A stretch of DNA of 63,035 nt, filler included, from Reticulomyxa filosa (Eukaryota; Protista; Foraminifera), in NCBI GenBank assembly GCA_000512085.1. It is 15 parts of 15 records of this genome, joined end to end, with 100 filler letters (N's around TTAATTAATTAA, not from the genome) between each part and the next. Parts side by side here need not be neighbours in the genome. Positions count along the whole stretch, not along the records: positions 14,690 to 21,147 come from ASPP01007243.1; 14 more parts are not named here. One strand, written 5' to 3'. Under the pieces are notes generated by a model, which saw nothing but the letters and a program-made list of their open reading frames with translations, searched no databases and was not told where the DNA came from. The position numbers and the translations under genes are program-made. Below are positions 2,946 to 52,345 of the stretch, piece after piece. Position 1 is the stretch's first letter. Each line of letters opens with the position of its first letter.

Positions 2946-4295
2946 TCAAAGTTTGGCCTTTGGAGCCTTGAATTTATTTTTTAGACCATCCCAACATTTG
3001 TAATAATCGGATTGCAGTAAAGGTTTTTCCAAGGCAGGTTTTGTGACTCGCAGCAAGTAGCACGACTCAAACATGAAAGCCAAAGCTTCCGTTTTAGGCT
3101 AAAAACGAACCCCACACATCAACCAACAAAGTTTGTTTTCAATGAATTGACAAAAGAAAAAAAAAGGAGTCAATTAACTGGGATAGGCACTTGAGGTTCA
3201 ACCGAAGCTTTTTCAAAAGCATCACTATCAGGACCATGAGGCGACATGCACGAGTGCAAGCTTCCACCCCCAGGCAGAAATCCCTCTGGTTTTGCTTCAT
3301 ATTGGCCATAAATATTGCCCATGTACTCGGACATGCAATTTCTGTGACATTTCACACAACCAGTCAAATCACGTGATACTTGCCCATTTAAGAAACAGAG
3401 CAAAGAGAGAGAAGAGAAATTTCAAAAAAAAGAAACGACTCCAAACGCATGCATCAAACCTGTGGTAATAAGGAGGCCGGAAAGTATCCGTGTGCACAGA
3501 CCAGCGAGGAGGGAACACGACAAAGTCGCAAACAGCCACGCCCGGGTTAGCCGTTTGAGCAGTTAAAACTATTTATTTTTCACAGACAATTCACAATAAT
3601 AATAATAATAATAATAACTAATAATAATAAATAAATAAATAAATAGTGAACCTGTAAAGATAGAAGGATCCATGTGGTCAAAAGTAACCGAGTTAACGGC
3701 ACAAAACAAACGCAAATCATATCGGTAAGGGACATAATTTCCATGCCAGCCAACGACATCAAATGGACTGCTCTTTCGATTGCATCGGAATAGCTTTCCA
3801 AGGAACTTTTGGACAATGTAAAAGTTCCCTTCAAAGTTTTCAAAACTCGCGACGGGGGTTTCAAAGTCTCGTGGGTTGGCCAAGCCATTTGCGCCAATGG
3901 GACCCAAATCTGGGATTACAAAATGTCCTTCAAATATTTCTGCAATGTACGCTCGTGATGGTCCTTTTTTTATTATTTGTTTATTTATTTAATGTATTTT
4001 TCCTCTCTCTCTCTACATACACATTCAACTCGTGTGTTCAAACAAAAAATAAAATACCTTTGACAAAAACAGCAAATTGGATGCCCCTTTGAATGACGGC
4101 GATGTAATTAACTGGCACTTCCAAACATCCACATTCAGTACGGATCAGCAAGTCTCCCTCTTGCGGCACGATCAATAGATCTGCGTCACTGTTTACCATT
4201 GCTGAATCAAGCATCGACTCGTTCCACGCGGCGATGTGAATTGCTATCCCTGCCTTCATCTCCGCACTTCCGGAACCACAGATCGTGTTCCAGCC
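2946..4295 (-). CDS. HGD: homogentisate 1,2-dioxygenase (5'-truncated, 5 visible exons)
   Basis: Motifs [92 protein letters not shown] and LAFMFES across GT-AG-bounded exons; stop at 2946-2948. Confidence 0.97.
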
Positions 4296-5905: not shown

Positions 5906-6327
5906 GCTAGAAAATGCTCTTTATATACATTTTTGAATTAATTTTACGATCTATCTCTTCAAAAAAAAAGAGAAAAGAGCTATATTATTTTCAAAAATAT
6001 TTTATAAACTGCTTAGTAAAGTTTTAAAAACTACTTTAAGTGTTCGAGTAATATTACAAATCAAGTCAGCCATGATGATGAAATTATTGGATATTTTTCT
6101 ATTGAATCAGTTTGTTGTAGCTATTGTCCAAAGTAATAAGTCTTCCCCCTTTGTCACCTCTGCAAGTTATTAAGGATGATCACCTTGTTCGACTGAGACA
6201 GTTATTTGAAGAGCTAGAGATATTCCCAGCAGATTGGTCGAACTGAAAGGCATATTTTGCCGACTGAATAGCCTTTTTTAAAAAAAAAAAAAAGCAAAAG
6301 GTGATTAGACCAATTTTGTGTATCCTC

Positions 6328-6370
6328 TGTAGGGCAAGTCCCTATTATAAGTATCCGAACGTCAAGGGGT
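6328..6370 (+). mobile_element. 5' fragment of the same LTR, including its TATA-like box
   Basis: TGTAGGGCAAGTCCCTATTATAAGTATCCGAACGTCAAGG versus TGTAGGGCAAGGCCCTATAAATATCTGAACGTTGAAGG read on the minus strand from 46439. Confidence 0.6.
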
Positions 6371-6405
6371 GTTCAAAAATAGAACTAAATCCAAATCCTT
6401 GTGAA

Positions 6406-7149
6406 ATGAGCCGACATTTAGAAAAGGAGTTGATGAGTTTGAGACATCGAGCCAAACAACTGAGCGATGCTTTGAGTAAAATAAATATAAATGATCCAAA
6501 TCAACACTGGAAAGTATTTTTGGACCAATTTAAAGTAATTTGTCAGCAATTGGCATTCTTACAGAGAGAATTGGCCCCACAAACGAATCAAATTTCCAAG
6601 TTTGTGATACAGCCTACAATCGATCATTTCGACTGTACACAGCTTGGTATTAAAAAAATTCCTCAAATCGAAAGTGAAGTCCGGGCCTTAGTCGACCCAA
6701 GCGGCAAAAATGACGAGTTTTCTTGTTAACGCCAGTTGCACTGCAGCAACGAATGGAGAGTTTTACGCAAATGTGTATTAATTTGCAAACATTTAACTAT
6801 CAAATTAAGTCACAAAAGCAAGAATCTCAAAATGACACAACAACGAATGAAGATAATCCAACTACAGCAATGACCGGGGTGGAATGACAAGCAATGTAGT
6901 TGAAATAAATGATGAGGAACTAGACAATGAAGAAAAAAAATCACAGAAGAGTTGTTGCATGCCAGAGCACTTGTATCATATATGTTTTCTGGAGTCATTC
7001 CTCCAAAAAACTTTAAAAGTGAAAGACACCAAGTAGATAAAAAAGATAATTCTGAGTCAAAATCACTTGATGCGGTAATGAAAGACAAATACAAACCCAC
7101 TGACCTTTTCTCAAACGAACAAACTTTGAAAGGTCACCCAACTCAATAA
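6406..7149 (+). CDS. MED8: Mediator complex subunit 8-like (three apparent 1-nt homopolymer deletions)
   Basis: WKVFLDQFKVICQQLAFLQREL, FVIQP, LGIKKIPQIESE, LQQRMESFTQMC and ALVSYMFSG occur in Med8 motif order. The frame is restored by adding one base each at T4 6718-6721, G4 6876-6879 and A8 6933-6940. Confidence 0.7.
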
Positions 7150-7695: not shown

Positions 7696-9087
7696 TTAAG
7701 TGTGTCCAGCCCATTGTTGGGACGAAATGAAGACAAGAGTTTCGGTGGTGGGATGGTGGTTGACGACAGTAGAGTTGATAGGGAGAGTGGGATAGGAATG
7801 AACGGACGGTAGTTGGAGCGGTAGAGGCAGTGACATTGGCATGGTCATTGGCAGTGTGGACGATGAAGTCGGGGTCGAGGTCAGAGGCGGAGGTGGAGGT
7901 GGAGGTGGAGGCGTGACCGGGAGCAAATACGAACAAACAAAGAGAGGTAAATTAGAAGTGGAGGCGTCAATAAGCAATGTAGTGTTGTCAAGACAATTGG
8001 CAGACGAGTGATGGTTGTGGTCGTAGTACGCAGTTGTGTCATGATTGAGACGAACGGCGGGAGGAGTGTGCCAATGAATCGAAGACATATTTCCACGACA
8101 AAGATGGAAACAAGTGGTTGGAAAGGACCAATTCATTGTCGGATTACTGTTGTCGTTGTGGTCATTGTCGTCATTATGGCCGTGGTCATTGTCATTGTTG
8201 TCATTCTCATTCTCATTCTCATTCTCATTCTCATTGCTCGCATTGTTCGACAATGAAAATGTTGATATCTCGTTCGAAGGTACGTCAATTGTATTGTTGT
8301 TTTTGAGTTGATCGTTCTATTTTTGGTTGTATATGTACATATTTATTATATATATAAAGATTTATCATATAATTATATATGTACATATACAAACTACGTA
8401 TTGCTGATATCGCTGTTTATGATCGGCCAAATCATCGGCGTCCAAAAGATGGACTACCATTTTGTCAATCAAAGATTGCAAGGAGTAGTTAATAGCAAAC
8501 TTGTTCTCCCATGTCATGGGCGTTTCACAAGGACGACGACAGATAGGACATTTGGGCGACGATAAACAACTACTATGCTTCATATGCTCTTTTAAACACA
8601 TGTAACAAAACGAATGTCCGCAATGCAATGTCACTGGTGCTACATACGTTTGTGTGCATATCCCACATTCAATGTCTTGCTTCAATGTCACTATCACATT
8701 TTTCTCTCTTTTGTCGTCCTTCTGTTCCATCCTTGTTTTTGTTCTCTTTTCCTCGTTTCCCTTCCCTTTTTTTGATGTTTTTTTTTCCGTCTTCGCTTTT
8801 TTCTCTGCTTTTCTTCTTTTTTTTCCTTTCACTGCCTTCCCTTTGCTATTCCAATTTCTTTGTCTATCAATCTTTTTTTCACTTAGCTCGGCTCTTTGCT
8901 CTTCTTCTTGCTTCTTTGTGTTATTTCCTTGCTCTTCTTTATCAGCTTCACTTTGCTTTTCTACGCACAGACGACGCGAACGCTTTAACGGCCGTTCAAA
9001 CGCTTCCAATGATTGTGAAGCTTCCAAATCTAAACAGCGTTTTCTCCCATTTCGTTTCAAGCGATCAGCACAGCCTGAAGCATCCAT
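7696..9087 (-). CDS. RING finger (C3HC4) protein, putative E3 ligase, with Lys-rich N-terminus and Pro-rich C-terminus
   Basis: CGICTQTYVAPVTLHCGHSFCYMCL...CPICR; a phase-0 GT-AG intron near 8319-8397 joins it to ORF 7696..8253; 3' end uncertain. Confidence 0.85.
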
Positions 9088-9570
9088 TATATTATTATTA
9101 TTTCTAATCCAACCCCGTAGCACAAAAATCTTTTCGGTGAAATAAACAAAGACAAAAACAAATTGTTGAAAACTTCTGTAGAATTCAATCAAAAATCTTG
9201 TAAATTATTTTTCTTAAATTCAAAAATGATTTTTTGAAAGGAAAAAAAAATAGACATACGATTACTATGCCTTGTCTTGGAAATACGGTGATGCTAAGAC
9301 CAATTGACTCGTTTAGCACAATGCACGAGCCCAATTTGGAAGGTTACCATCACATCTTCGTCGACAGCGTTGAACACTAGACTTTTCATCAAATCATCTA
9401 TAACTACCATTTAGGTAGTTATAAATGTAACAATGTCCTTGCTCCCTTACCTTATATAAATTCTCATGGCACACACTTTTTTTTTTTTTAAACACAAAAC
9501 TAGTCAAAAAATGTTTTCTAATTTGTTCTTGCTTGTTATTACTTGTTCTTGCTTTGCCATTGTTTGCCAT

Positions 9571-14589: not shown

Positions 14590-14689
14590 NNNNNNNNNNN
14601 NNNNNNNNNNNNNNNNNNNNNNNNNNNNNNNNNTTAATTAATTAANNNNNNNNNNNNNNNNNNNNNNNNNNNNNNNNNNNNNNNNNNNN
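14590..14689. other. artificial contig-joining spacer
   Basis: N44-TTAATTAATTAA-N44. Confidence 0.98.
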
Positions 14690-14964
14690 TTTCCACGTTG
14701 TTATAATGAAAATTTACGAATTTTTTTTAAAATCTGAAAATGGAGTTAGTAATTGTTTTTTTTTTTTTTTTGAGTTTTGTTTGCTTTGTATGTGCAACTG
14801 CAGTGTTGGCAATATTGAGATTTTACCTACCCTCTTATATCAGCATTATTACATTTTCCAAACAAGAATTAGTTTTTTTATATTGCCACTATGAAACAAG
14901 TTTAAAAAATATAGCAATTGGCACCCAAGTCAAGAAACACAAAGTTTTGTAGTTAAGAAGCATG

Positions 14965-15699
14965 TCAAAGACTTGGAGTGGGTGGACACTGTAAGTCCGG
15001 GTTAATTCCTCCAATTTGAACAACACTGATAATCCCTTGAGGAGTATAGGGATAGTTTCTGCCAGTGTTTGGATTCGGGTTAACTTTTACCCCTAAGTAC
15101 TGAGTGACCATCTGATTCACCATATCCAAATCATCTGGATGAGTATGCATGCACCCGGCAGAATTGGGCATTTGCTGTTAGCAGCCACATCAACACATTT
15201 GCAAGATTTGTCCCTCTCTCCCCCTCCCCCTCCCCCCCCCCCCTCCACAGACATATACATACATATATGTATATACATATATGTATATATGTGTCCCTGA
15301 ACACTTTTATTGAAACAATTTTTTTTTTTAAAAAAAAAAAAGTAAATAACCATATCATCGTCCCAATTTGGCCATTCACCAGTATGCATCAAAATGCCAT
15401 CGCGAATATTAGGCAACAGCAACGCGGAATTTCCGACAATGCCTTTGACAACGCGGTGAATAGGGAATGGTCCGTACAAGGTGGCGTTTTGTTCCGGCGA
15501 GTTCAAGTCCAAGTAGGACAAGCCTGTCGGGGTGTTCCCGTCGGAGGTGAATTGATTGTAACCAGGGATGTTGCTGTAATCAGGCCATGCTTGCGAAGGG
15601 TTTGAGTTGCCATGAGCACGTACACGCCATTCGAGCAATAAGATATTATTTGGGTCCAATAGCTTTGCAGTGGTCTCAAAGCATCTTTTATTATTATTA

Positions 15700-15746
<47 letters not shown>

Positions 15747-16219
15747 GTTTTATTTTGTTTTGCATCTTGGAGACAATACAAGGGACAATCTAGATTCAAC
15801 AAAAATAAACACCTGAATTGATCGTTGTACACTGGCAAATATATCTTGTAAGACATGTTATAATCTTTGGCTTTGATTTCTAACCCGTCGTTGTCTGTGA
15901 ATCCATCATACGAATCATAGTACAACGTCGCATTTGCCGTCGGACTGTCAAACAGACCGGTCGTCGGCAAATGGTAATTTGCTTGATACTTTAACACCGC
16001 GTTACTGGTTGTGTTCGTGTACACTGAAGATGGACTCACTGAACTAGGCCAACATAAACAACGTGACATCAACGTAGTCGCTATTAGTACATCATTGCCA
16101 GACATTCCTGGAGACAACACTCTCGTGAAAGGTAGAGGCATTGTCTCACTCTCTCCTAATGATGTCCGAGGCAGTATCTGCCATAGTAATGCAATGTACA
16201 GTATATGATTAAACATCAT
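14965..16219 (-). CDS. secreted peptidoglycan-binding (PG_binding_1-like) plus YkuD/L,D-transpeptidase-fold protein; 3 exons, 316 aa
   Basis: Exons 16219-15813, 15684-15351 and 15174-14965 splice in frame with GT-AG introns. Signal-peptide-like N-terminus; LSPGMSGNDV...AVLKYQANYHLPTTGLFDSPT; GNTPTG; GILMH-x15-SAGCMH. Confidence 0.85.
15688..15746. repeat. (TAT)n microsatellite in intron 1 of the YkuD-like gene
   Basis: Directly visible; explains the poly-Ile and poly-Tyr in the ORF track. Confidence 0.9.
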
Positions 16220-16443
16220 CGACCCTAGAGGATTATCTTTTCGCCTTTTTTTTTATTTGTCTGCTTAGACGAAAAAAGAGGATTGTGAGAGGAAAAAAGT
16301 GCTGTAATAACAAAATATTGAAGGACATATAACTATTCTAAGAAGTCTACATGAAAGCTGTGTCAAGTTTTTTGTCAACGGATATTTTGATAAATAATAT
16401 TATTTGGCTACAAGTTATTAAATGCGTCAATATTTTTTACAAC

Positions 16444-17800
16444 TCATATTTGGTTTGGCTCAACAGAAACAAATCGAAATATTTCTAAAAATGCACCATT
16501 ACATCTTTCCAAAAATTCTGCTGTACTCAAAGAAAATTCTTGTTCTGATTGAAAAATTATACATTTGGTTTTTTGCCGAACAACAGAATACCAAAGAAGG
16601 TTATTTTTCGTTTTATTTGCCTCAAGAGATAATATCATGCCTCTCAGCATTGCAGGATTAGTTTGATTATTTACTGGATTTCTCAACAAATACATATTTT
16701 TCGCACTGTAGAAACAATTCCAAAATGTTATCCATGTTTCATCTGACACAAAAAAATATTCATAACACAACAATTCATCTTTTATCCATCACGATTAAGG
16801 TTTTACTCCTAGTTGTTGAAATAATTAATCATTCAAGCATTTTAAGTGACAAATTAAAAAAAAATAACTGTGTGGGATCTGAGTGCCAAATTGTTGTTTG
16901 TGCCTTGATATATTTTTTAATATTTCGCTGTTGTTTGTATTGGTTTTTCGAAAAATAACACCAATTGTTGTTTTCAACAATATGAGCACTATCTTTATTA
17001 TTTCCTTTACAATGTAACCTTGGCGTAATTGACGCTATTGCAATGTCATCAACACTTATTAATTCATTTCGCTCATTTTTCATGAGGCAATTTTTGAGTG
17101 GTTCTTCCTGTTTTGCGTAGTGCCAATATCTCTTTCCATAACTTCGTTTCTTTAAGTAGTACGAGTGAACTCGAAAAAGGAGAAAAGGTAGCAGAAAATG
17201 CTTTTAGAACTGCCGCTGTTGGTGTGCTATCAAGCTGTCCAAAAAATTTTCTGTTTTCGATAATGACAACATGCATTTTTTTTCGGATGTTTGGTGCCAG
17301 TAGTTTGCACAATGCGTTAATTTGCACTTTGATATGGTCGTTCACACACTGCCGAACAGTTGACGTAATTCTATGCCACAAAGACAAATGAATAAATTAA
17401 ATCTAAAAATATAAAATGAAAATGAAGTAGACTTGGTTGATTTTTCTTGTAATGTAAAAAAGGAGGGCTGAATATGACGAGCAATTTGATTGCACAAATT
17501 GATTCCATGGCCGAATTCAACCGCCGATGCGAGTATGCAAACCAAGCCGTATGTTTCATTAAAAGTGCAGTGATCAATGGTTTTGAACACTATTTTGTTT
17601 TCCTCAAACTCGAGTGTTATGTCGTTTTTTGTCTCTCGGTCGTTATGTTCCATAACAGACTGTGCATTGAGATAAAGAGCATAAAGCGCACTTCCCAAGT
17701 AAAGGGCGTCCCTACTCTCTGTTATGTATTTGTTGGAACAAAATATTTTCTTTGCCAACAAACGACCACTGTTACTTTCAAAAACGATGTATCCATTCAT
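16444..17800 (-). CDS. uncharacterised multi-exon protein with longin-like N-terminus
   Basis: MNGYIVFESNSGRLLAKKIF followed by a helix and beta-hairpin-like KIVFKTID...YGLVCILAS resembles a longin/sigma-adaptin fold; downstream exons in ORFs 17073..17387 and 16444..16773; exon junctions not resolved. Confidence 0.45.
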
Positions 17801-18554
17801 TACAATGAGCCTCCCTTATAAAAAAATTTTCAAAAAAAAAGGGGGCTTATACACGTAAACTATGAGCGAAAGGTGTCAATTGCTAGAACGAATGAACCCT
17901 TTTTTTTCTCCTTCCCCCTCCTCATTCACATTTTACTAGAACTTTTATTTCATTCAATTCTACAATGAAAATATTCAAGGCTTCGAAACAAAAACTAAGA
18001 AAAAAAGAATATTGGTGCCATCCGTCTTCCCCCCACAATTAACAAAATAACAAGAAAGCAAAAACAGAAGTAAAAATGTTCTGATTGAAAAACATTTTTA
18101 AAATTGAAACGATAACCATTGAAAAAATAAAAAACGAACAAAACAAAAAAACAGAACAAACAAAAAAGCTTTTTTGCAAACTATCGAACGACAATTTGCT
18201 GCAGTAAAGACCACACTTTGCCTTCCCCTCCCTCGGCAGAAACGCCTTCACCAACCCTGTTTAATATTTGGTGTAAGCACGCTCAAGAAATACATCTAAC
18301 TTTACAACTGCTCATTATTTGCTTCCCAAAAAAAAAAAAAACAAAACAAACAAAAATCTAACGGTCAGCACTTAAGAAAACTACAACAACCATCACATTT
18401 TAAAAAAATTATACACACACGCTATTTTTTTTAAATGTTCTCCGAATTTGGAAAATTGGGAAATCAAAAAAAAAAAAAAAGAAAAAAAAAATGGAGAAAA
18501 ATAAAACACTCATTTTACCTCTAATTATTTTTCATATACTGTATTACTAATGTA

Positions 18555-21147
18555 CTACAAAATATACTCCCCGTACATTTTGCCGAGTATTTGCTTCCCC
18601 CATGAATGCTTGAGAATATCTTTTCTTGAGATACTTCTTTCAATCTGGTTAACCAAATCTCGGCAGTAATCTACGCTTCCAACATCGAGGAGGGTTTGTA
18701 TAACATAATTGCCGTACTCATGACGAACCATTCGAGTCGTCAAATAGCAATCTTTTTTCTCGCAAAAGTCAACTGAGTCAACTTTTTCTGTGCGTCCTAA
18801 GCGTTGAATTGAATATAAGATTCGACAAAAAATTTTCTTATGCAGTTCGGGTTCATCCTTCAGTTCACGAAGACAATGCTCAATAACGTTGGATGAAAAC
18901 TTGTTGAATACCAACGTTTCCACATCATCGCACATTTTTTCTACCAGGCGCGTCAACAATTGTCCATTCGTTTCCAGACTTAATATTTTCTGAATGACGT
19001 AATTGCCATATTTGTCCATACACAGGCAGTCACGTTATTCATCAATTCGTTGATCACAATGGCCCGTTGCGCATCGGTGCAATGTGCCAGCAAACGTTGC
19101 ACAACCCGGCAACCATAAACATGGACCGAAAATTGAAATATTTTACCTGTGTTTTTTTTTTTTTAAATATAGTTTTTTTTTTTGTTTTTTTTTGGGGGGG
19201 GATAGGAATGTTTCTGGATATAAAAAAAAAAAAAAAAGGAGTACGTACGTAGGAAAAAAAAAAAAAAATTACCTTTAATTAAGCGCAATATCCAATCCAG
19301 ATACTCAGCTGGCACTTTCTCAATAATCTTTTGAAGGACGTGGTTGCCAAATTGATTCTCAAAAAAGATGGACAGCTTGCTTTGATCGAAGGAGCAAATT
19401 TCTTGCAAGACGAGAACCTTGAGACACAAGGGATAATGCTGATCCATGACAATCCTTTGAATTACCCGACAGCTGTACTGGTTAATACTGAGCTCTCGAA
19501 TGTGTCCTAAAAACACTTGGTTGATGATTCGGGTTCCCAAGCGAGCCATTTCGTCCTTGCTCGTGACTTGTACCTCTTCGCAAGCGCGGGTAATGTCATT
19601 AAGCACGCCAGTAATTTGAAGTCTGCCTCTTTCCATGGCAATGGAAACATTATTCCACACTTTGCTTGCGACGCTCGTTGCCAATGCTTCTCCCCTTTCG
19701 CAAGTCATCTCCAATAACTTTTGGATAACATAATTGCCAAAGATGTGCGTGCACAAATACAAGCCGTGGCTCACGATCAATGTATCAATCAATTCGCTTA
19801 AATCACGTATACTAGTCAATTTATCATCACATAACTTTTGCACGTGTCGACTTCCAAATTTGTCCTCGCAAAGACATAGCAACAATCTCGGGTATGGCAA
19901 CAAGTCACGTACGGAGCAATTGAACTCTTGCAACTTCCTTGTCTCGACACCGCGACTTTTGCATAATTCGTCCATTTTGTCCAGCTCTGATGCTTTCAAC
20001 ATGTCCGCGCGCGACTGAAAGTGGTTGTCACATATCTTTTCAGATTTTATCACGATGGGCCCTTTTCTTACTTTTGCCCTTGCCTTTGCCCTTGGCTTTT
20101 ACGTTGATGCTTTTTTCATTGGCTTCCAACATATCGTCATTGCTATTGCTATTGCTATTGCTGTCATTGCAAAAATCATCTACTCGTAATACTCGAGCGT
20201 TGGCACTGCCATTGACATCACGTCGATCACCACAGACACCATTGTAACCAATGTAACCATTGTTGACACCGTTTTCACCATTGTTACCGTTACCACTACC
20301 ATCACCATTGCTACGTATACGTACCAAAACATTTGCTGGACTTTTCTGTGAAGGCGACCACGAATGCGTTATGTAAAGTTGATCTACACAGCCTTGTTGT
20401 CTCTGCTGTTGCTGTTGCTGTTGCTGTTGTGGTTGCACTTCGTTACCCATTTTTCGTTTAAGCTCATGAATTTGTGGGCAGGTATACGTATCTTTAGAAT
20501 TTCTTGGACTGTCATATCTTTTGGATGGCGCCTGCAAACTTGCACTCACTTCATTCACTATTGTGAATACCTGATTTTGGACTGGCATTTGCATTTGCAT
20601 TTGCATTGGCATTGGTACTTGCATTTGCATTGGGACTGGAATTGGCATTGCCAGTTGCATTTCAATGGAATCGCTTGGAACCGATGTCGATGGTGATGGC
20701 AGCCAGCTTTGATTGTAAGGGAGCATCGGTTCACCTCTTGGATCATATACGGCAGCAGGCGTTTGCTTGCAAGGGATACAACAGGTACGACGGGGATAAT
20801 CGCAAACGTGCGCAGGTACAAATTCGTTGATGACATATGCCATACTTGCCTTGCGTCGCACTTCCTCGTTATCATCGACCACACCAAAATAAATATCGGG
20901 AATTGCATCGGTGGATATTTCGTCCTCTTGGGTGTCAATCTGTTTGTTATTGTTATTGTTATTGCCATAATAATTGTCATTGCTGTTAGCATCAACGTCA
21001 ACATTCACGCCCATTTCCATCTCCATTTCCATTTCCATTTCCATGTCAATGTCGCTACTGCTGTTTAGGGACTCATAGCTTCTGCTACTGTTATTCGTGT
21101 TGGCAACATTATAGCTTGGAACATTAATGTACGTATAACAACTGCTA
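18555..21147 (-). CDS. Pumilio/PUF RNA-binding protein, 8 repeats (5'-truncated)
   Basis: Repeat cores GSRHVQ, GNYVIQ, SCRVIQ, GNHVLQ, GCRVVQ, GNYVIQ, SSNVIE, GNYVIQ. Low-complexity Q/N/M-rich N-terminus. One intron and two apparent frameshifts in short homopolymers (near 20065 and 19026). Confidence 0.93.
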
Positions 21148-24031: not shown

Positions 24032-25770
24032 TTATATCAAATTGCCTATAAAAAAGACAATAGTGAAAAGATATGAACAAAAACACAAAAGTTTAAAAAA
24101 TTTGTAAACAAAAAAAGGAATGAAAATGTGGACAAACCGTTGACAAGACTAGTGTTAATGACAATGTGCTGCACATCTGAAAACACGCGCTCGACATTGT
24201 TTTTATCCGTCGCAAGAGTGACATGGGTGTAAATAGGTTTGTCTTTTGGGTTGGAATTTTGACTTTCAAATTGATGTTTAATGAATTCTATGCATGGCTC
24301 GTATTCATTAATACCATCGTATTCAGGGAAGCAAACAGTTAACGGATGTTGCTGAATTCTCTTCGCAAATTCATCTTGTTTGTTCAAGAACAATATCATT
24401 GCAGTGGTGGCAAACCATCGCAAATTGCAAATTTCGTTGAATAACTCAATGCTGTCGATCATTGAGTTGCATTGTTCATCTTCGTACATAATCTATTCCA
24501 ACAAAGACAAAAAAAAAAAACAAAAAAAGACGCATTTTGTTTTTAATCACTGCCACCTATGAGGAAAAACAAAACACAATACAAATTAGTCCACGTGCTA
24601 ACCTCATTATAGGCCGCTAAAGAAGCCACAAAGATGACTGCGGTAACACGCTCAAAACAGTGAATCCATTTCTTGCGTTCACTGCGCTGTCCACCGACAT
24701 CAAACACGTGGAAAGTGGTGCCATGGATATTAAACTTTTGTTCCACTACACCGGTAGTTCGATGTCTCACCATCAATATGTCCTTTTATTTTTTATTGTT
24801 GTGTATATCAGTACTGTAAGCACCCTCCCCTCCTGCTTACCAGTAAACTTTTTTTTTTTTTTGAAGAAGGGAGGGGAAGGGGGATTTGTTTAATCTTTGT
24901 TAAATGTGTCTGAAACTGATGAATTAGTTTTCCCCCCCCCCTCATTTGTTGTCGTGTTATCCATATCTATACATCCTAACCTTATCTGTGGGCACGTAGC
25001 CTCTGACCGCGATTCTTCGTACTTCATTGAAAAAGTACTCCGACGAGTCGTCAACTTTCAAGCGTGCACGCTCGCCAAATGTCGCCTTAATTGCTTCCTC
25101 TTTCCACAACAACTCCACTGCATCCGCAACTTCATCATTTACATCCATATCTCCTCTCACGCTTTCCATAAATTCCGCGGCAGGTTGACCTTCATCACTT
25201 ATCTTTTTTTTTCCACCCCCCCCCCCCAAAAAAAAACGTATACCCTAACCGTTATGAACTTCATAATAAACAACGAAATAAAAACAAATTAACTTTTAAG
25301 TTTCCGAATTTGTCCGGATCTTCATCTTTTAAGTCTTCAAATGCGTTAACCAATTCCTTCATTTGTTCAATAATCTGACTGTAAATGTGGTCTTTAAATC
25401 CTTGCCTGTCTTTATCTTGAAAACCTTGTCCATGGATTGTGCGTAGTTGCTTAAACAATGTGGATTTACCGGAACCACCTATGTCCCACATTTTTAATTT
25501 TTTTTTTTTGGAAGTGACATCATGTCTGTTGTTGTTAGCCTTTTCTTCTGTCCTCAAGAAAGACTGTATACGTTAAAAAAAAAGTTTATGTTGCATATAG
25601 TGTTGTGAAGGGGGATTTTAATATGTGTAATGTCGGATGCACACCCAATTCGTACCAGATCCCAAAAAAAGCAACTTTTTAACGTTGGCATCAATCTTTT
25701 TATCTTGATTCAGTTCCTTGGATACTTGGGTATTACTTCTTAAATCTTCTGAGGATGAACAACAGCCCAT
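24032..25770 (-). CDS. heterotrimeric G-protein alpha subunit (multi-exon)
   Basis: MGCCSS N-terminus, [50 protein letters not shown] and C-terminal GNLI* after the last intron. Confidence 0.96.
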
Positions 25771-29007: not shown

Positions 29008-31119
29008 TTATTTTTTAATTGCTTTGACTATTTTGGTAGCAGCATCGTCTAAATCACTGGCTGATTCAATCAACAATCCTGATTTATCCAATAATTTCTT
29101 TCCCTCGTCAACATTTGTACCAGCTAATCTCACCACCAAAGGAATACCTTTGGATTTCAAATTGATTTTTGATGCTGCGGCAATCACTCCACGAGCGATC
29201 ACATCACATTTCATGATACCACCAAAAATGTTCACCAGAATTCCTTTTACATTAGGGTCGCTTGTTAATATTTTGAAGGCTTCTTCGACTTGTTTTTCGT
29301 TGGCTCCACCACCAACATCCAAAAAGTTTGCTGGTTCTCCTCCGTGCAACTTGATCACGTCCATTGTGGCCATTGCCAAACCAGCTCCATTGACTAGTTT
29401 TTTTAAAAAAAAAACACACCATCACAATGAGTGTACAATGCAAGTAAATGTTACAAGACATAAAAACAGACACTACATACCCATGCATCCAATATTTCCG
29501 GCTAAGCCTACATAATTGAGTCCAACGGCTTCAGCAGCCACCTCTCTAGGATCTTCCATTGTGGGATCTTTCCAAGAAAATATTTCCTTGTTTCGAAATC
29601 CCGCAAAATCATCAAAGCCTAATTTTGCATCAACGCAATACACTTTCTCGTTGTAATGTTCCTTTGTAGTTTGTACAAATGGGTTAATTTCTACTTGTAC
29701 GCAGTCGTTCTTTGTGAATAAGTCATAAAGTCCTTGCATCTATTTACATCCAAGCCGACACGCCCCCCAAGCAGTGTTTATCTATCATAGTCACTCTAAG
29801 GCCGTCTTTTATACTTTGCTGCGACACTTACAAAGAATAATTTTCGCTAGAGACACACCTGAACCACGGCGTCGTCCACAGCTTTGCCAGTGAAGCCCAA
29901 AAACTTTGCCATTTCTTGGCCAATTGATTTGGTCAATCCTTGTCGGATATCTATCGGAATCTGTTGAATATCAATTTTAACAAACCAAAAATGCAATTTA
30001 TGATTGAATGTTTATGTCGCAGGGTGTTTTTTTTTTAACAAAAAAAAAACTCTATGCTAAACAGTTTTTATTTTATCCGGATATTTCTCAGCCACTTCTT
30101 CGATTTCCATTCCTCCCATTGGTGAACCAACAATGACAGGTCCGTCATAAGCTCGTTCCAACAAGAAGGCCAAGTAGTATTCTTTCGCAAAGTCTACACC
30201 CTCATGAACTAACACGTATTGCACTTTTTGACCATCAGGGCCAGTTTGATTTGTTACCAATGTCTTTCCAATCATTTCTTTTGTCATGGCTTCTACTTCT
30301 TCGGGTCTGCAAAAAAATATTAGGGGGAAAAAAAAAACCACATCATTACCTTTTTTTTAAAAAAAATTTTCTCTCTTCCCTTGTTGGTGAGAGTTCAGAA
30401 CAACTGGGGAGCTTTTTTTTGTTGTCATTAGGCTCATCAAAAAAAAACTTTGTCCTTGTGAGACAGTGTACAAAAAAAAAAACATAAAAACAAAAAAAGA
30501 AAGAGAAGCACCCAACGATTGACAAACTTTGACACCGCCTTTGAAGCCTGTTTCTTTGAAATAACCTTTGCCTCGGCCACCAGCCAAGATTTGCGACTTG
30601 ACTACCAAATCTCGAGCACCGCTTGCTGTTTGTGTTTTGGTTTGAGGTTTTGTACATTGCACATTATCATAAAATTTAGTATTGAGTTTTTCTTTTCTCC
30701 CTCACCCACATCCCCTTTTCCTTTTCTTTCCCTTTCCGGTTTGTTTGTATTGTCAGTACACACGCCCCAAAAAAAAAATCGAAAACTCCTTAGTCAATTA
30801 TATCCTCGCTGTAACAAACCTCGCAATTCGATGGCGTTCTTCTTCGCTTGTGCAGGGGTTGATGCTAAAATGCCTCTTTGGACACGCACACCGTGTTTTT
30901 GCATTAATTCTTTAGCACGATATTCATGTAAGTTCAAAAAACGTGTTGGAGCCGATTGTTGCCTTGCTGCTGCCGTTTTTTTTTTGTTTGTTATTGTGTT
31001 TGTATTTGGGGTGTGTAGTAGGGAGAGATGAAACAAAACGTTTTTTTCTCCTCCCTCGTACTTACTTTAAATGTTTTGGAAAATTTTTTGGCAAAATTTT
31101 GACGCAAAGCGAACGCCAT
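29008..31119 (-). CDS. succinyl-CoA ligase beta subunit, mitochondrial (multi-exon)
   Basis: Targeting-like [13 protein letters not shown]; [98 protein letters not shown]. Confidence 0.97.
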
Positions 31120-35100: not shown

Positions 35101-36026
35101 TCTCTCAATATTTTTATTTCATTTTTTTCTTCTAACCTATTAAATAATATTTTTTGTTTTACTTTACAGTCATGCATACATATTGTACATATTTAACTCA
35201 TTTAAGTTGGAATTTGTACAAATCTCTCTTAATTTCTCGAACGTATCAGCATAAATTTGATTGCAATTTCTCCATACCTTCGAAATAGTTATTTTGTCAA
35301 GTTTATTACCAAATTTTTTTAGTATATACATTAAATATGATTGTTGTTGAAAAGTCGTGCTATAATTAACGTGTATTATTAAAATTAGTTTTAGAAAAAG
35401 GATACTTGAACAAGTTTATTGCCAAATGACGTCTTAACTTGTTGTCTACGATAAATCTGAGAATAATGACTGTTATTTCCAAATCTCCCTTGCACAACCT
35501 CCATGTCCTTGAGAAATTTCTTTTTCAATTGAAAATAATTTTTGAGACTGTTCCATTTGAGATATAGAAAAAGTAGTGAAAACTTTGTTGATGCAGCAAA
35601 AAAAAGAGTTTACAGTTTCCAACTTAATTTAAAATATAAACTTTCGTCGAAATTATTGGGAAAAAGATTCTATTCAAAAGTAAAACCAATTTATGAGATT
35701 GTTAAACTTTTTTGTTTTTTAATTTTCAAGAAAACTTTGTGATGTTGGTGTTTGAATTTTCCCTTTTCAAGAACATTGATCATTGTTTTAATTCAAATTC
35801 GGAAATAATACAATTTAAAAGGCCATCCTAATGTCTAGCAAATGTAAGTTGCAAAAATTATTAGATTCACTTAAATTACACAAAAAATTGAAAGAATAAA
35901 CAAAGAAAACAAAGTTTGCTGTCGTTTTCAATCTCAAAGTAGGAGTAAACGTGCAAAACGCGTTTACCAAACGTAGGAAAAAAAAATCCTTTTCTGTCGT
36001 GTTTTTTTCGTAAAAATTTTAAGACA

Positions 36027-37173
36027 ATGGGAAATGGTACATCTTGCAGTACAACAGTAAGAGTTAAGAATAATTATGGTTGTACTTTGGACTATGTAAC
36101 AGTGTATCACAAATTTCGACAAGACGGAAACGTCACAAGCAAGACTTGGGATAACGTTGGCAAAAACGAGACAACCAGCGCAGATTTTCGGGTGTACTAC
36201 AGAGTAGGTTTTGGTGCGATGACAGACTATGATTGGTGGGCAGTGAAGTTTTGCATTGGTGAAACGGAATATGCAATTGATCCTTACTTTGAGCCGTCTG
36301 GATTTAAAGGATGCTATTTAAAGGAAGAAGACGAACGTGGTCCAGTGACCATAATAATCAAATCAAATTCAACAGATGGTATATATATATATATTTAGGG
36401 TGCTATTTTTAGTTTTATATTATATAGCATACATTATGAAAAGGTATCGTAATATCTCCATATCGCTCATCGGATGCCAGTACAAATTATTCCAACAAAC
36501 CGGGAGGAGGATTACGATGTGTAACTAAAAATAAAGCAGTCCAAGCCATTGCCGTAGCAGGCTTGGCAGCGGCAACAGGAGGAGTTGGAACAGTAGTAGC
36601 GAGTACGGCAGTTTTCGGAATAACACATGGACAGGTTAATTGGAAAAAAAAAAAAAATGGAGTCGGAGGGGAGGGAAAGTATACGTAAATACGAAAATCA
36701 TTTGTTAAATAATATAAAAGGTTGATAATACGCGTGATGAATCTCTTGCAGTAAAGAGAATTAATCCTTATGGGCTAGAGTTGGATGACAAGGTAATAGA
36801 ATTAAAAGTCTTTTCAATATGGCTTTGCCACGGCGTTGTTGCAGCTCCAGGTAGCGTTTTTTCGTCAGTAACAGGTAATTCGGTTACTCATTGGTGGGTA
36901 CAACTTCAAACTAAAAACGCTTGGTACTGTGCCCAGTTCGCTGGCTCAATTTTGGAATTGACTAAACACAGCGACCCGTCTGAGGTGACAACACGTGGTA
37001 AAAGTTGTCGCAAAACTGACGAAAAAGTCAACATCACCAAAAAATTTTCATCTAAACCCGAAACCAGGACCATGCGAGATGTCGTCGAGTTTATGCGTAA
37101 GTACAACGGTTTCTATGACCTTGTTAGTAACAATTGCCAAGATTTTGCAACTACAATGTACAAATGGATCTAA
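36027..37173 (+). CDS. PUD-1/2-like domain plus Gly/Ala hydrophobic segment plus permuted papain (PPPDE/LRAT-like) domain; 3 exons, 331 aa
   Basis: Exons 36027-36378, 36444-36634 and 36721-37173 splice in frame. MGNGTS start; VRVKNN..VTVYHKF..W..DWWAVKF..FKGCYLKEED; AIAVAGLAAATGGVGTVVA; THWWVQL...YDLVSNNCQDFA. Confidence 0.8.
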
Positions 37174-48936: not shown

Positions 48937-49896
48937 CATTGAGAAAATCAATTATCATCATAAGATATGTTTTATGCGTTAAATTTTTGAGGTTGCAACT
49001 ACAGTAGGTTGCAAAGAAAACTGATCAACTTTTCCAATATTTGAAATTGCTGAAATAAATCGTCTCAAATACAATCGACTGCAAAAAACTCCTAAAATGA
49101 ACACATACAAACATTTGTAAGTTTAATCAATATTTTTTCAAAAAATTGAAAAAAAATATTCACGATTTTTCACACTTTTATTAAAAATCAAATACTTTTT
49201 TAGATTATCTAGGATGAGTAAACATACTTAAAAAAGAATTTTAAAAAATATTTATTTTCGTGAATAAATTACAAATGTTTATGGAGGTTCATTTTGAAGG
49301 GACCTTTTCCTTTGCTTGGATTGTATCATATATTTTCCGTGTATTGATTTTTTTTTTTTTTGGAGCAAAAGGAAGTGCAGATTATATCACATGATTAGAT
49401 TGCCAGATTTGTGCTGGCATACCTATTAAATGGCTTAATGATGACCATAAAGAAGTAATAAACAAAAACGATATTACCTTACAACAGTTTATGTGCCTTG
49501 CGTTTACCCGACGTGCCGGAAATCACTGCAAAGAGGAGAGAAAAGGTGTTTTATATTTATTCTGTCAAAGCTGGGCTTTATGGAGGAATGAACGCTGTTG
49601 GAAAAAAAGACCAGTCAATGTATTCGGTAAGCGTACTTTTGTATTCATTCACAAAACAACAAAAACTGTGCTTTTGAGCAATTGGAAAAAAAAGAAATTT
49701 AGCTATTATATAGCTTGACAAAGAGACAAGCCTTATATTAAAGAATTATACTCTGCATTGTATTTCGTTTATGATGGATTGAACAATTCAATAAACTGGC
49801 TGCACAATACGTTGAGTAGTATTGTTTCTCATTTGATCTAAATGTCTAAATTTTTTGACCTGCCACATTTTTAACATAAAAAAAATTAAAGTGTTT

Positions 49897-50790
49897 ATGT
49901 CTTCTTTAAATGAGGAAATAAAGCTGAGATTTTCACCGAATGGCCGTATGGCTTTATTGTGCTTCAGAGATGGAAAGATGGAGTTATGGGACAAAGAATT
50001 ACGAAATAAAATTGGATCAATGCAGGGACATTCCAGTGCAATTGGAAATGCAGAATTTTCATTTGATTGTAGATTTGTTGTATCATGTTCACATGACAAA
50101 ACAATTCGAATATGTAATGTGATATCAGTAAAAGAAGTGAAAAAATTGGGAGGGAATTGTGATGGCGTGAGAACAATACAGTTTTCATCTGATGACAAAA
50201 CAATTGTGTCTTGTTCAACTGATGAAACAATTTGATTATTAGATGTGCAATCAGGAAATGAAATACACACGCTAGAAAAGAATGAAGATCATGAATTTAG
50301 CGTTTACCTGATGTTAAATCATTGCATCATATAGTGTTGATGAAGTATCATTATTTCTGTCTTTGGAATTACTTTTGGCTTCACACGCACACTACGAAAA
50401 AATATGAAAACATTAGTTGGACATAAAAAATTAGTGCTTGATGTACAGTTTACTTCAGATGAGCTCAGTATTATTTCTTGCGCAAATGATGCAACCATTC
50501 GATTATAGGATGTGCAATCAGGAAAAGAACTTCGGCGCTCTGAAGGCGATTTCTGCGATGCAGAAATTGTAAAATTGTCAATGGATGACCTCAGAATTAT
50601 CACGTGCACGAAAAACCGCAAAATTCAAATATGGGACACAAACACAATGACAGTTGTACAAAAGACGAAAGCAAATTCAAATGGTAAGTCATATTGCTAT
50701 CTCGCCAGATGGAAATATAATTACATTACGCAAACGTGATGGGACTTCAATTACGAGGATGATGTACATCACCTGTGATCCAAATAACTG
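49897..50790 (+). pseudogene. WD40-repeat pseudogene
   Basis: FSPNG, GHSS, VSCSHDKTIRI repeats with in-frame stops at conserved positions (TGA 50233-50235 for R; TAG 50506-50508 for the W of WD). Confidence 0.8.
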
Positions 50791-51267
50791 AAAAAATAAG
50801 ACATTTCAACTAAGTGTATTGCAAAAAAAAAACAACAAATTTTGATATTATTTGCGGATTTCTTCAGTCAAACTCAATCTCGTAACTACAATATTTTGGA
50901 AAACTTGTTTAAACTTGCAAGTCAGTATCGTAGTTTTTGATTTGTTCTGTAAATTCGTGATTACATTCAATTTTAGATGGCTCTATTAGATTTACAAATG
51001 AATCTCAAAACGACTCCCTTTCTACTCCAAAAAGTAGAGATCTTATCAATAAAACAGACAAGTCACGACTGTCTGAGAAAGATATTGCAACTCGCAACTG
51101 TTTGAACAAGGCAAACTGCGTAGAAGAATGAAAGAAGATATGGTCGTGACATTAACTTTTTCTTACACAACTTTTTTTTTGTTGTATGATGTTTTGTTGA
51201 AGGATGAAAAAGTATTAAAGTGAACAATACGAGACGAATTGTATGGTTTACAAAAAAAAAAAAAAAG

Positions 51268-52345
51268 GCTGACAATGAGATAGCAACAATTTTACAACGA
51301 TGGCTTAGAACAGCGTCAATAAACCTGGGATGGATCAACGATTTCAACAAAATTGTTGCGCGATATACTCAAGTTTTCCTCATTGACAAAATTTCTGTAT
51401 ATTTTGATGTAACACCTGCAATTCTAATATCGCTAAAAAAAATTCAAGGGCGAACACTTCAAGCTATTAGGGGTAATCAACGGACATTCCAGGGCAGTGA
51501 CAAGTGTAAATTTTTCCTCAGATGGTACTAAAATCGCTTCAGCTTCATGGGACACAACAGTTCGAATATGGGATGTGGCATCGATGAAGGAAATTGATAG
51601 ATTATTAGGACATTACAATTGGGTAAATGATGCAAATTTTTCATTGGATGGGAAGATGGTGGTATCTTCATCCGATGATCAAACAATACGATTATGGGAT
51701 ATAAGTTCCGGACAAGAGATGAGAAAATTAAGAAGGGCTGAACATAGCATAACAAAAAGTAAATTTTCACCAGATGGAAATACTATTGTATCATGTGAAA
51801 AAACAATAATTCAACTTTGGGATGTAACATCTCGACAAGAATTGAAAAAAATGCAAGGACATACAAATTTGGTAACTGATGTTGAATTTTCACCTGATGG
51901 CAAATTTATTGTATCTTCTTCGAATGACAAAACAATTGCGATATGGAATGTGCTATCAGGCCAAAGAGTACGCCAATTGCAAGGACATTCAAGTTTTGTA
52001 TTAAGAGCCAAGTATTCTTTAGATGGCTCCAATATTGTATCTGGCTCTTATGATGGAACAATTCGAATATGGGATGTGTCATCAGGAGCAGAGTTGGTGA
52101 AATTCCAAGGACATTCCGATGCGGTAAGCGATGTGCAATTCTTGCCAGGAAAGAAATTTATTGTATCATGTTCTTTTGACAAAACAATTCGGATTTGGGA
52201 CATCAGGTCGAGACACGAAGTGCAACAATTGTTACGACACAGAAAAGATATAACGGCTTTGGATGTGTCGCCAGATGGCAAAATGATGGTGTCTTCTTCT
52301 GAGGATGAGACAATCATGTTGTGGGCAAGAATAAAAACAATATAA
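51268..52345 (+). CDS. lineage-expanded WD40-repeat protein (7 repeats; 5' exon uncertain)
   Basis: EIATILQRWLRTASINLGWINDFNKIVARY exon, intron 51373-51448, then in-frame GH...FSPDG...D.TIRIWD repeats to the stop at 52345. Confidence 0.88.

Follow-up and report, generated by a model that had tools for sequence, protein, structure and literature searches.

Enzymes with the L,D-transpeptidase (YkuD) fold are usually discussed as builders of the bacterial wall, as targets of carbapenems and as toxins that bacteria use against each other. An earlier note described, in the foraminiferan Reticulomyxa filosa, an intron-containing gene that joins such a domain to a peptidoglycan-binding one, and the locus raises the question of what a protein of this kind does in a eukaryote and how it came to be there. 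The gene is considered here within the window, the whole stretch of 63,035 nucleotides that was analysed. Its profile matches, fold and catalytic residues all place the encoded protein in the YkuD superfamily. Our preferred reading, to which we give a probability of about 0.6, is that the product is a secretory-pathway peptidoglycan stem peptidase, likely of the lysosome or food vacuole, that helps to digest eaten bacteria, a process whose course in amoebae is described as incompletely known in the part of PMC11520349 drawn on here. What is new is a eukaryote-wide and apparently unstudied family, and the interest lies in that family and not in a single host.

A spliced gene on a eukaryotic contig

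When both strands were read, three exons joined through two GT-AG introns (Table 1) gave a reading frame of 951 nt that encodes 316 amino acids and has a single terminal stop, as the earlier note had described, and all of the motifs quoted there are present in the spliced protein. The first ATG, at 16219, has an in-frame stop directly upstream. GC content is 42-49% in the exons and simple repeats occur in both introns. Under the GT-AG rule alone, 216 combinations of donor and acceptor keep the frame open; the rule is therefore insufficient to fix the splice sites and outside evidence is needed. The two closest relatives, P0001 and P0005, align at equal length through both junctions. Contigs of a relative (88-94% identical) run directly from 15351 to 15174, an exact join across intron 2, and from 15678 to 15813 across six intervening letters, as many as 15679-15684 requires (letters that were skipped as a repeat in the contig comparison). 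The junction contigs are three short ones from a single public run (X1), with a depth of 2-3 and 5% of words shared; the run is that of the relative and not of the host, and its type, 'RNA?', is a guess. Both of the joins for which an RNA check had been suggested were thus found, in contigs of this relative rather than in host reads.

Exon 1 is covered by the relative's contigs at 15813-15862 and 15899-16147. Third codon positions hold 29 of the 40 listed differences between gene and contigs, and 32 of the 40 are synonymous as against 22% expected (p ~1e-14), 16 further differences lying outside this count. Because the contigs join at the junctions and the differences are mostly synonymous, the spliced frame is genuine and has evolved under purifying selection, on evidence that comes from a relative at a depth of 2-3 in one run.

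Table 1. The gene and its surroundings, in positions of the window. Full-length relatives are a subset (244) of the 367 proteins fetched, at profile E<=1e-30, and include some near-duplicates.
Feature	Position	Strand	Remarks
Contig piece with the gene	14690-21147		Bounded by N44-linker-N44 joins
Pumilio (PUF) repeat gene	~18558-20098	-	PF00806, E 1e-19 and 1.5e-15; same contig piece as the YkuD gene
Exon 1	16219-15813	-	407 nt; codes for residues 1-135 and 2 nt more; contains the leader, the peptidoglycan-binding domain and the catalytic domain's first strand
Intron 1	15812-15685	-	128 nt, GT..AG, phase 2, 17% GC, contains (AAT)n repeat
Exon 2	15684-15351	-	334 nt; residues 136-247; core of YkuD-fold domain, T-P-T-G motif, catalytic His
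Intron 2	15350-15175	-	176 nt, GT..AG, phase 0; splits His...Cys motif
Exon 3	15174-14965	-	210 nt including stop; residues 248-316; S-x-G-C nucleophile motif, helix, last strand
Predicted signal peptide	16154-16219	-	~residues 1-22, boundary approximate; hydropathy peak 2.25 at residues 6-16
PG_binding_1-like three-helix domain	15917-16138	-	~residues 28-101; PF01471 on residues 60-97
His236 codon, predicted catalytic base	15384-15386	-	His in 244/244 full-length relatives
Cys255 codon, predicted nucleophile	15151-15153	-	Ser252 and Gly254 precede; Ser, Gly and Cys each in 244/244 full-length relatives
Short C-terminal extension	15013-14968	-	Residues 302-316, with Cys310

The earlier note had also held that this is a eukaryotic gene and not bacterial contamination, and here the junctions, the selection and the Pumilio gene on the same contig all agree with it. 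A gene model that is an artefact or a bacterial contaminant could draw on the 216 open splice forms and on junction support from one low-depth run of a relative, its type guessed. It is opposed by the exact junctions and the purifying selection, by the shared contig, by the presence of relatives on coral genome contigs of up to 42 Mb and by intronless metagenome copies that adjoin PRP1_N, NUP50, Foie-gras and anoctamin genes; it is largely refuted already, and we regard it as extremely improbable.

The window contains 14 identical linkers (44 N, 12 bases and 44 N) within 1298-59465, for example at 14590-14689, and genes on either side of a linker need not be true neighbours. The other pieces carry ordinary eukaryotic genes, in reported order homogentisate dioxygenase, Med8, a RING finger protein, G-alpha, a CoA-ligase and WD40 repeats (in the same order, 3572-3988 -, 6268-6726 +, 8368-9204 -, 24049-24492 -, 29011-29421 - and 49837-52342 +). 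A frame at 35949-36395 (+) matches PUD1_2 (PF18457, 'up-regulated in long-lived daf-2') at 43.6 bits against a cut-off of 28.8, a family that occurs mainly in nematodes and fungi, and the frame that follows (36718-37170) resembles LRAT weakly (E 8.5e-4). No paralog of the YkuD gene was found within the window.

Domains, fold and catalytic residues

The combination of a peptidoglycan-binding with a YkuD domain, as originally proposed, was borne out by profiles and by models of relatives. On exon 1 the PF01471 profile scores 22.0 bits (E 1.9e-4), just below its cut-off of 23, and exons 2 and 3 scanned singly gave no match to the YkuD profile. Among the aligned relatives PG_binding_1 is present in 128 of 141 and YkuD (PF03734) in 117 of 141, both at E<=0.01. 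The Bolivina protein P0001, which is 54.5% identical to the spliced model over 308 columns, matches YkuD at 28.6 bits, above the cut-off of 23.4.

Folds were taken from models of two relatives, not of the window protein itself, namely P0001 (pLDDT 94.8) and the catalytic domain of a metagenome relative (pLDDT 93.6). The fold check suggested earlier, run on these models, found the YkuD fold. Foldseek matches of the P0001 model at E<=0.001 are YkuD-family structures, and with the catalytic domain alone all 20 rows at Z>=5 are YkuD proteins, the next row having a Z of 3.6. With VIA-align the N-terminal domain of P0001 superposes on the N-domain of SleB with a Z of 11.9 (rmsd 1.6, 73 aligned); against the AP3 endolysin Z is 11.0 (rmsd 1.3). 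Over bacterial and phage wall-binding domains the range is 10.7-11.9, as against 4.8-5.4 for the animal matrix metalloproteinase domain. For the C-terminal domain of P0001, Pgp2 and Csd6 score 11.9 and 11.8. The catalytic domain alone gave Pgp2 (Z 11.7, rmsd 2.9, 129 aligned), Csd6 (11.5, 3.2, 131) and Bd1075 (10.2, 3.1, 123), and then LdtA (9.8), Tlde1a (9.5), Ldtfm (9.2) and DpaA (7.2). These top three matches are hydrolases and the cross-linking enzymes stand at 9.8 or less, a lead of under 2 Z units at 11-17% identity; a shared fold does not show function. DpaA was rejected as the closest kin on account of its low place in the structural list (Z 6.9-7.2). A profile of the catalytic domain had no match among solved chains at E<=10, and judged by sequence this domain is remote from solved structures.

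The YkuD consensus is given as HXX14-17[S/T]HGCh with catalytic His and Cys in the part of 10.1101/2020.02.18.954545 used here. In the window protein the order is His236, 15 residues, Ser252, Ala253, Gly254, Cys255 and Met. The spacing fits the consensus, and the structural alignments made with the models of relatives span both the His and the Cys positions. Intron 2 lies between His236 and Cys255 and so divides the catalytic motif, as had been noticed. Of the [ST]HGC pattern, the catalytic His and Cys are intact and correctly spaced, but the second His is missing: the motif is H-x15-S-A-G-C, with Ala253 in its place. Of the 244 full-length relatives, 68 have His at this position and the others L, D, A, N, E or S. 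The replacement counts against a digestive role: in Tlde1a this second His helps to position D-Ala4 (PMC9638812, in part). When Tlde1a loses this His, cross-linking suffers more than trimming does (PMC9638812, in part).

The likeness to Tlde1a (Z 9.5-9.6), LdtA (9.8) and Ldtfm (9.2-9.7), all within ~2 Z units of the top, could also mean that the protein is a true transpeptidase or exchange enzyme, which would corrupt the wall of living bacteria as Tlde1a does or link stems to a host amine acceptor. Bacterial proteins also show the layout of peptidoglycan-binding and YkuD domains, and the Tlde1a fold is reported to carry out carboxypeptidase, exchange and some cross-linking reactions (PMC9638812, in part). 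Yet the three best structural matches are hydrolases, the His-Cys spacing (H236/C255) is canonical, unlike the short spacing of the Tlde1 type (H121/C131 in Tlde1a; 10.1101/2020.02.18.954545, in part), and a lysosome-like setting would favour hydrolysis. We consider such an activity unlikely and retain hydrolysis of stem peptides as the reading to be developed below.

Several further features of the family may be recorded. No Cys stands at the column of Cys137 in the 25 alignment rows printed, and an extra disulfide involving Cys137/Cys310 is possible. Six longer relatives of 438-1264 aa (P0036, P0148, P0153, P0174, P0180 and P0218) may be fusions or gene-calling artefacts, and P0036 has an extra match to PF06108 (DUF952). 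Phage proteins in BFVD with a similar domain (best E 6e-6 to 1e-3, 11-19% identity) include some in which it is fused to GH19, to tail lysozyme, to LysM or to tape-measure proteins, which hint at a lytic use of the YkuD-like fold in phages.

A family spread across eukaryotes

Relatives were gathered with P0001 (181 proteins, named hosts being taken from the best 120), with an anemone member (303 proteins, named hosts from the best 120) and from a library of 50% clusters (291 proteins, the best 150 listed). Among the matches listed are the foraminifera Bolivina and Nonionella, the stramenopiles Pteridomonas, Rhizochromulina, Epipyxis, Chrysophaeum and an ochromonad, the Amoebozoa Paramoeba, Ceratiomyxa, Clastostelium and several dictyostelids, the apusomonad Thecamonas, the choanoflagellate Salpingoeca kvevrii, the heterolobosean Pharyngomonas, and Cnidaria in the form of corals, anemones, octocorals, jellyfish and Clytia. 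A sequence labelled Symbiodinium nests between chrysophytes and is possibly a contaminant. The eukaryotic relatives are 37-60% identical to the window protein; in Nematostella LOC5514932 is 43% identical over 290 aa, and in Dictyostelium DDB_G0279747 (UniProt Q54WD2) is 39% identical over 304 aa, with exon 2 alone reaching 51% over 108 aa. The UniRef name of the latter is 'L,D-TPase catalytic domain-containing protein', domain labels of this kind being automatic. No bacterial name occurs among the matches listed, most of which are unnamed, and neither fungi, plants nor bilaterians are among the named matches listed (best 120 of 181 and best 120 of 303). On sequence similarity the family spans at least five eukaryotic supergroup-level lineages, animals included. 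No description of a eukaryotic YkuD family was found in the literature covered, a coverage to which subscription journals and bioRxiv supplements do not belong.

Metagenomes yielded 90 relatives from 112 pattern matches, of which 80 were kept. Split matches suggest introns in 9 of these 80, and on 13 longer loci the neighbours include genes for PRP1_N, NUP50, Foie-gras, anoctamin, RING-BRCT and CLPTM1. In the two nearest ESM Atlas clusters, 100% of the members that have a record belong to Eukaryota.

The search for a bacterial or phage donor was made on samples, as a loose first look without a positive control, so that finding no close relative among those searched does not amount to absence. 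Pattern scans found no relative in 40 candidate stretches from GTDB or in 7 viral ones, and tblastn with the Dictyostelium protein against plasmids and phages gave nothing at E<=0.01. The full profile matched 3 of 401, 17 of 201 and 43 of 401 genomes in three phyla, always at profile positions 16-141, the peptidoglycan-binding part. The catalytic profile matched none of 251 sampled bacterial genomes and none of 5 in a further sample. NCBIfam gave only sub-threshold peptidoglycan-binding matches and PHROGs nothing usable. The ESM Atlas offered as leads a Verrucomicrobiota cluster with peptidoglycan-binding and YkuD domains (0.90) and phage YkuD clusters (0.87-0.88), leads that stand without confirmation by alignment. 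The suggestion in the earlier note that this host had domesticated a bacterial enzyme did not survive these results: the family is conserved across at least five lineages, and no bacterial donor was found in the samples searched.

This drift of the catalytic domain, whose profile finds neither a solved structure at E<=10 nor any of the 251 sampled bacterial genomes, might reflect repurposing for a eukaryotic substrate such as a lysosomal amide or isopeptide bond, with a wall-binding domain that no longer binds peptidoglycan. The SHGC His is free to vary, and a related three-helix domain, not known to bind peptidoglycan, exists in animal matrix metalloproteinases (Z 4.8-5.4). The N-terminal domain, however, resembles the wall-binding domains of bacteria and phages (Z 10.7-11.9) far more closely than it does that of the metalloproteinases, PF01471 still scores in 128 of 141 members, and two wall-related domains retained together argue for a wall substrate. 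Such a change of substrate is in our view improbable, and bacterial peptidoglycan is kept as the presumed target.

A tree of 34 rows, comprising the named proteins and two close unnamed ones (other unnamed rows were left out), was built unrooted. The window protein groups with the Bolivina sequences and the two unnamed ones with a support of 100/100, a placement that by this gene alone points to a probable foraminiferan host. All 12 cnidarian rows fall together as a clade (100/99), within which octocorals and scyphozoans make up subgroups. The seven dictyostelid and protosteloid rows form another clade (99/95), and a support of 93/89 unites the foraminifera and stramenopiles with the alveolate-labelled row. 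A clade of Cnidaria and the choanoflagellate is compatible with the data (p-AU 0.18). A single clade of all eight Amoebozoa is rejected (p-AU 0.004) because of the long Paramoeba row, which is a paralog, a contaminant or a transfer between eukaryotes; purely vertical descent was not accepted on this ground. The pattern, in a tree without an outgroup, fits an old gene that was inherited within groups and often lost. Because of the fold, an ultimate bacterial or phage origin may be inferred.

Predicted routing and the Dictyostelium protein

A hydrophobic 9-mer leader is present in 167 of the 179 relatives with an N-terminal extension. There are four N-glycosylation sequons in the window protein and a median of three in the family, and none of the 244 full-length relatives has a C-terminal membrane stretch or KDEL. 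The leaders, the sequons and this lack of a membrane stretch or KDEL together predict a soluble protein of the secretory pathway. The description of the protein as secreted is therefore retained as far as predicted entry into this pathway is concerned, but its location is better read as likely lysosomal.

Evidence on location came from the Dictyostelium member. In the table of signal-peptide proteins that bind an anion-exchange resin at pH 3, DDB_G0279747 stands in data row 22 (PMC11520349 supplement 3). In the part of that paper used here this fraction, which the authors term putative lysosomal, lyses Gram-negative bacteria, and 135 of 147 proteins of the lytic fraction have a signal or membrane segment, no single protein having been purified. 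Counts for DDB_G0279747 over 50-400 mM NaCl are 4, 7, 15, 14, 13, 8, 0 and 4, with a peak at 150-250 mM, and over 13-17 mL they are 8, 8, 7, 3, 5, 0, 0, 0 and 0, with zero counts in the 15.5-16 mL size fractions in which anti-Klebsiella activity peaks (PMC11520349, in part). These fraction data support location more than function. The lytic assays were run at ~pH 2, and so acid a medium may leave a His/Cys pair with little activity. The protein, of 289 residues, peaks at 13-14 mL, the authors estimating ~70 kDa at 14 mL (PMC11520349, in part); this early elution could be that of a dimer, a heavily glycosylated form or a complex. DDB_G0279747 was not found in the portion of the supplements of an earlier fractionation paper available here (PMC7886984), nor was there a match to family terms, one of them a guessed identifier, in the corresponding portion of the PMC2443395 supplements. 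The literature searched mentions the protein only in rows of supplementary tables and not in a main text.

According to the data drawn from PMC7078664, the mRNA of DDB_G0279747 shows no change with K. pneumoniae (logFC -0.17, adj. p 0.36) or with folate and a slight decrease with B. subtilis (logFC -0.58, adj. p 0.002). This expression speaks against a defence gene that bacteria induce; for a digestive gene that is constitutively expressed it has no bearing either way. The missing induction by these two bacteria would also suit a protein that processes peptidoglycan fragments for sensing or silencing, for example in the control of the cnidarian microbiome, rather than for killing or nutrition. 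All 12 sampled cnidarian sequences fall, as noted, in the one clade, in keeping with such a use, and trimming of D-Ala4 alters a fragment without lysis. Unicellular bacterivores nevertheless dominate the range of the family, and the Dictyostelium member co-fractionates with bulk digestive hydrolases; we hold a signalling role to be rather unlikely and return to digestion.

A likely role in digesting bacteria

In the digestive reading, the leader and the four sequons would route the protein to the lysosome or to the outside, and its N-terminal domain would tether it to the bacterial wall. Cys255, activated by His236, would then attack the bond after stem residue 3 (mDAP/Lys-D-Ala), and the resulting acyl-enzyme would be resolved by water, as in the L,D-carboxypeptidases Csd6, Pgp2 and Bd1075. 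Cross-links at the same L,D bond might perhaps be opened too. Trimming of D-Ala4 alone leaves the wall network unbroken, which counts against the reading; the enzyme would act in concert with lysozymes and proteases rather than by itself. The retention of both domains together across lineages at 37-60% identity speaks for this reading. Most of the named hosts are phagotrophic. That the protein acts against bacterial prey, as the earlier note had supposed, is plausible, with indirect support from the presence of DDB_G0279747 in bacteriolytic fractions.

A bolder version, which we put forward tentatively and consider somewhat doubtful as a whole, is that the family is a very old and undescribed eukaryotic branch of the L,D-transpeptidases, perhaps as old as the last eukaryotic common ancestor, which would belong to the toolkit for eating bacteria, act as a cysteine enzyme that cleaves the L,D bond in stems or in cross-links, and have persisted in organisms as different as amoebae, foraminifera, corals and jellyfish. 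If this is true, animals and Dictyostelium possess an antibacterial enzyme class that had been recorded in bacteria and phages. The conserved wall-binding domain and catalytic pair suggest an unrecognised attack on, or processing of, peptidoglycan by phagocytes and early-branching animals.

Relation to known systems

The best catalytic-domain matches are Csd6 of Helicobacter pylori, Pgp2 of Campylobacter jejuni and Bd1075 of Bdellovibrio (Z 10.2-11.9, rmsd ~3, 123-137 aligned), which share the His/Cys catalytic pair at 11-18% identity to the family models. These are L,D-carboxypeptidases with a C-terminal NTF2 domain, according to the part of PMC8938487 used here. The eukaryotic family is without this domain and has an N-terminal peptidoglycan-binding one instead; the last strand of the model ends the YkuD fold, and the window protein has only ~15 residues more. 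Csd6, Pgp2 and Bd1075 shape their own wall, whereas the hosts of the eukaryotic family have no wall of that kind. Going by the models, the family most likely works as these enzymes do, though it stands outside their family in having no NTF2 domain.

The fold and motif spacing are also those of the bacterial L,D-transpeptidases (YkuD/Ldt; LdtA/YcbB, Ldtfm and LdtMt2), and some bacterial PG_binding_1 and YkuD proteins (PDB 4lpq and 4xxt) have the same order of the two domains. The eukaryotic family differs from them in its S-x-G-C with variable x, its leader, sequons and introns, and in a catalytic profile without a sequence match to solved chains. Tlde1a (Tae5), an antibacterial effector of type VI secretion, shares the YkuD fold and is aimed at the walls of other bacteria, but it is a single-domain protein with an immunity gene and T6SS injection, none of which applies to the window gene. 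Membership of Tlde1 (DUF2778) was ruled out by the His-Cys spacing and by the spliced eukaryotic locus beside a Pumilio gene. PMC3482391, in the part of that source drawn on, deals with bacterial toxins only.

Eukaryotic wall hydrolases of bacterial type are already known in the tick Dae amidases, the NlpC/P60 proteins of Trichomonas and the GH25 lysozymes, which likewise have a signal peptide and introns. Their catalytic folds differ from that of the YkuD family, and they are lineage-restricted transfers with identifiable donors. A lineage-specific domestication of the Dae kind was set aside for the present gene in view of its wide range and of the samples searched, in which no donor was found, a result that does not equal absence. 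Closest in kind are DDB_G0279747 of Dictyostelium and LOC5514932 of Nematostella, uncharacterised members of the same family as the window protein; both belong to genetic models, and the idea is therefore directly testable.
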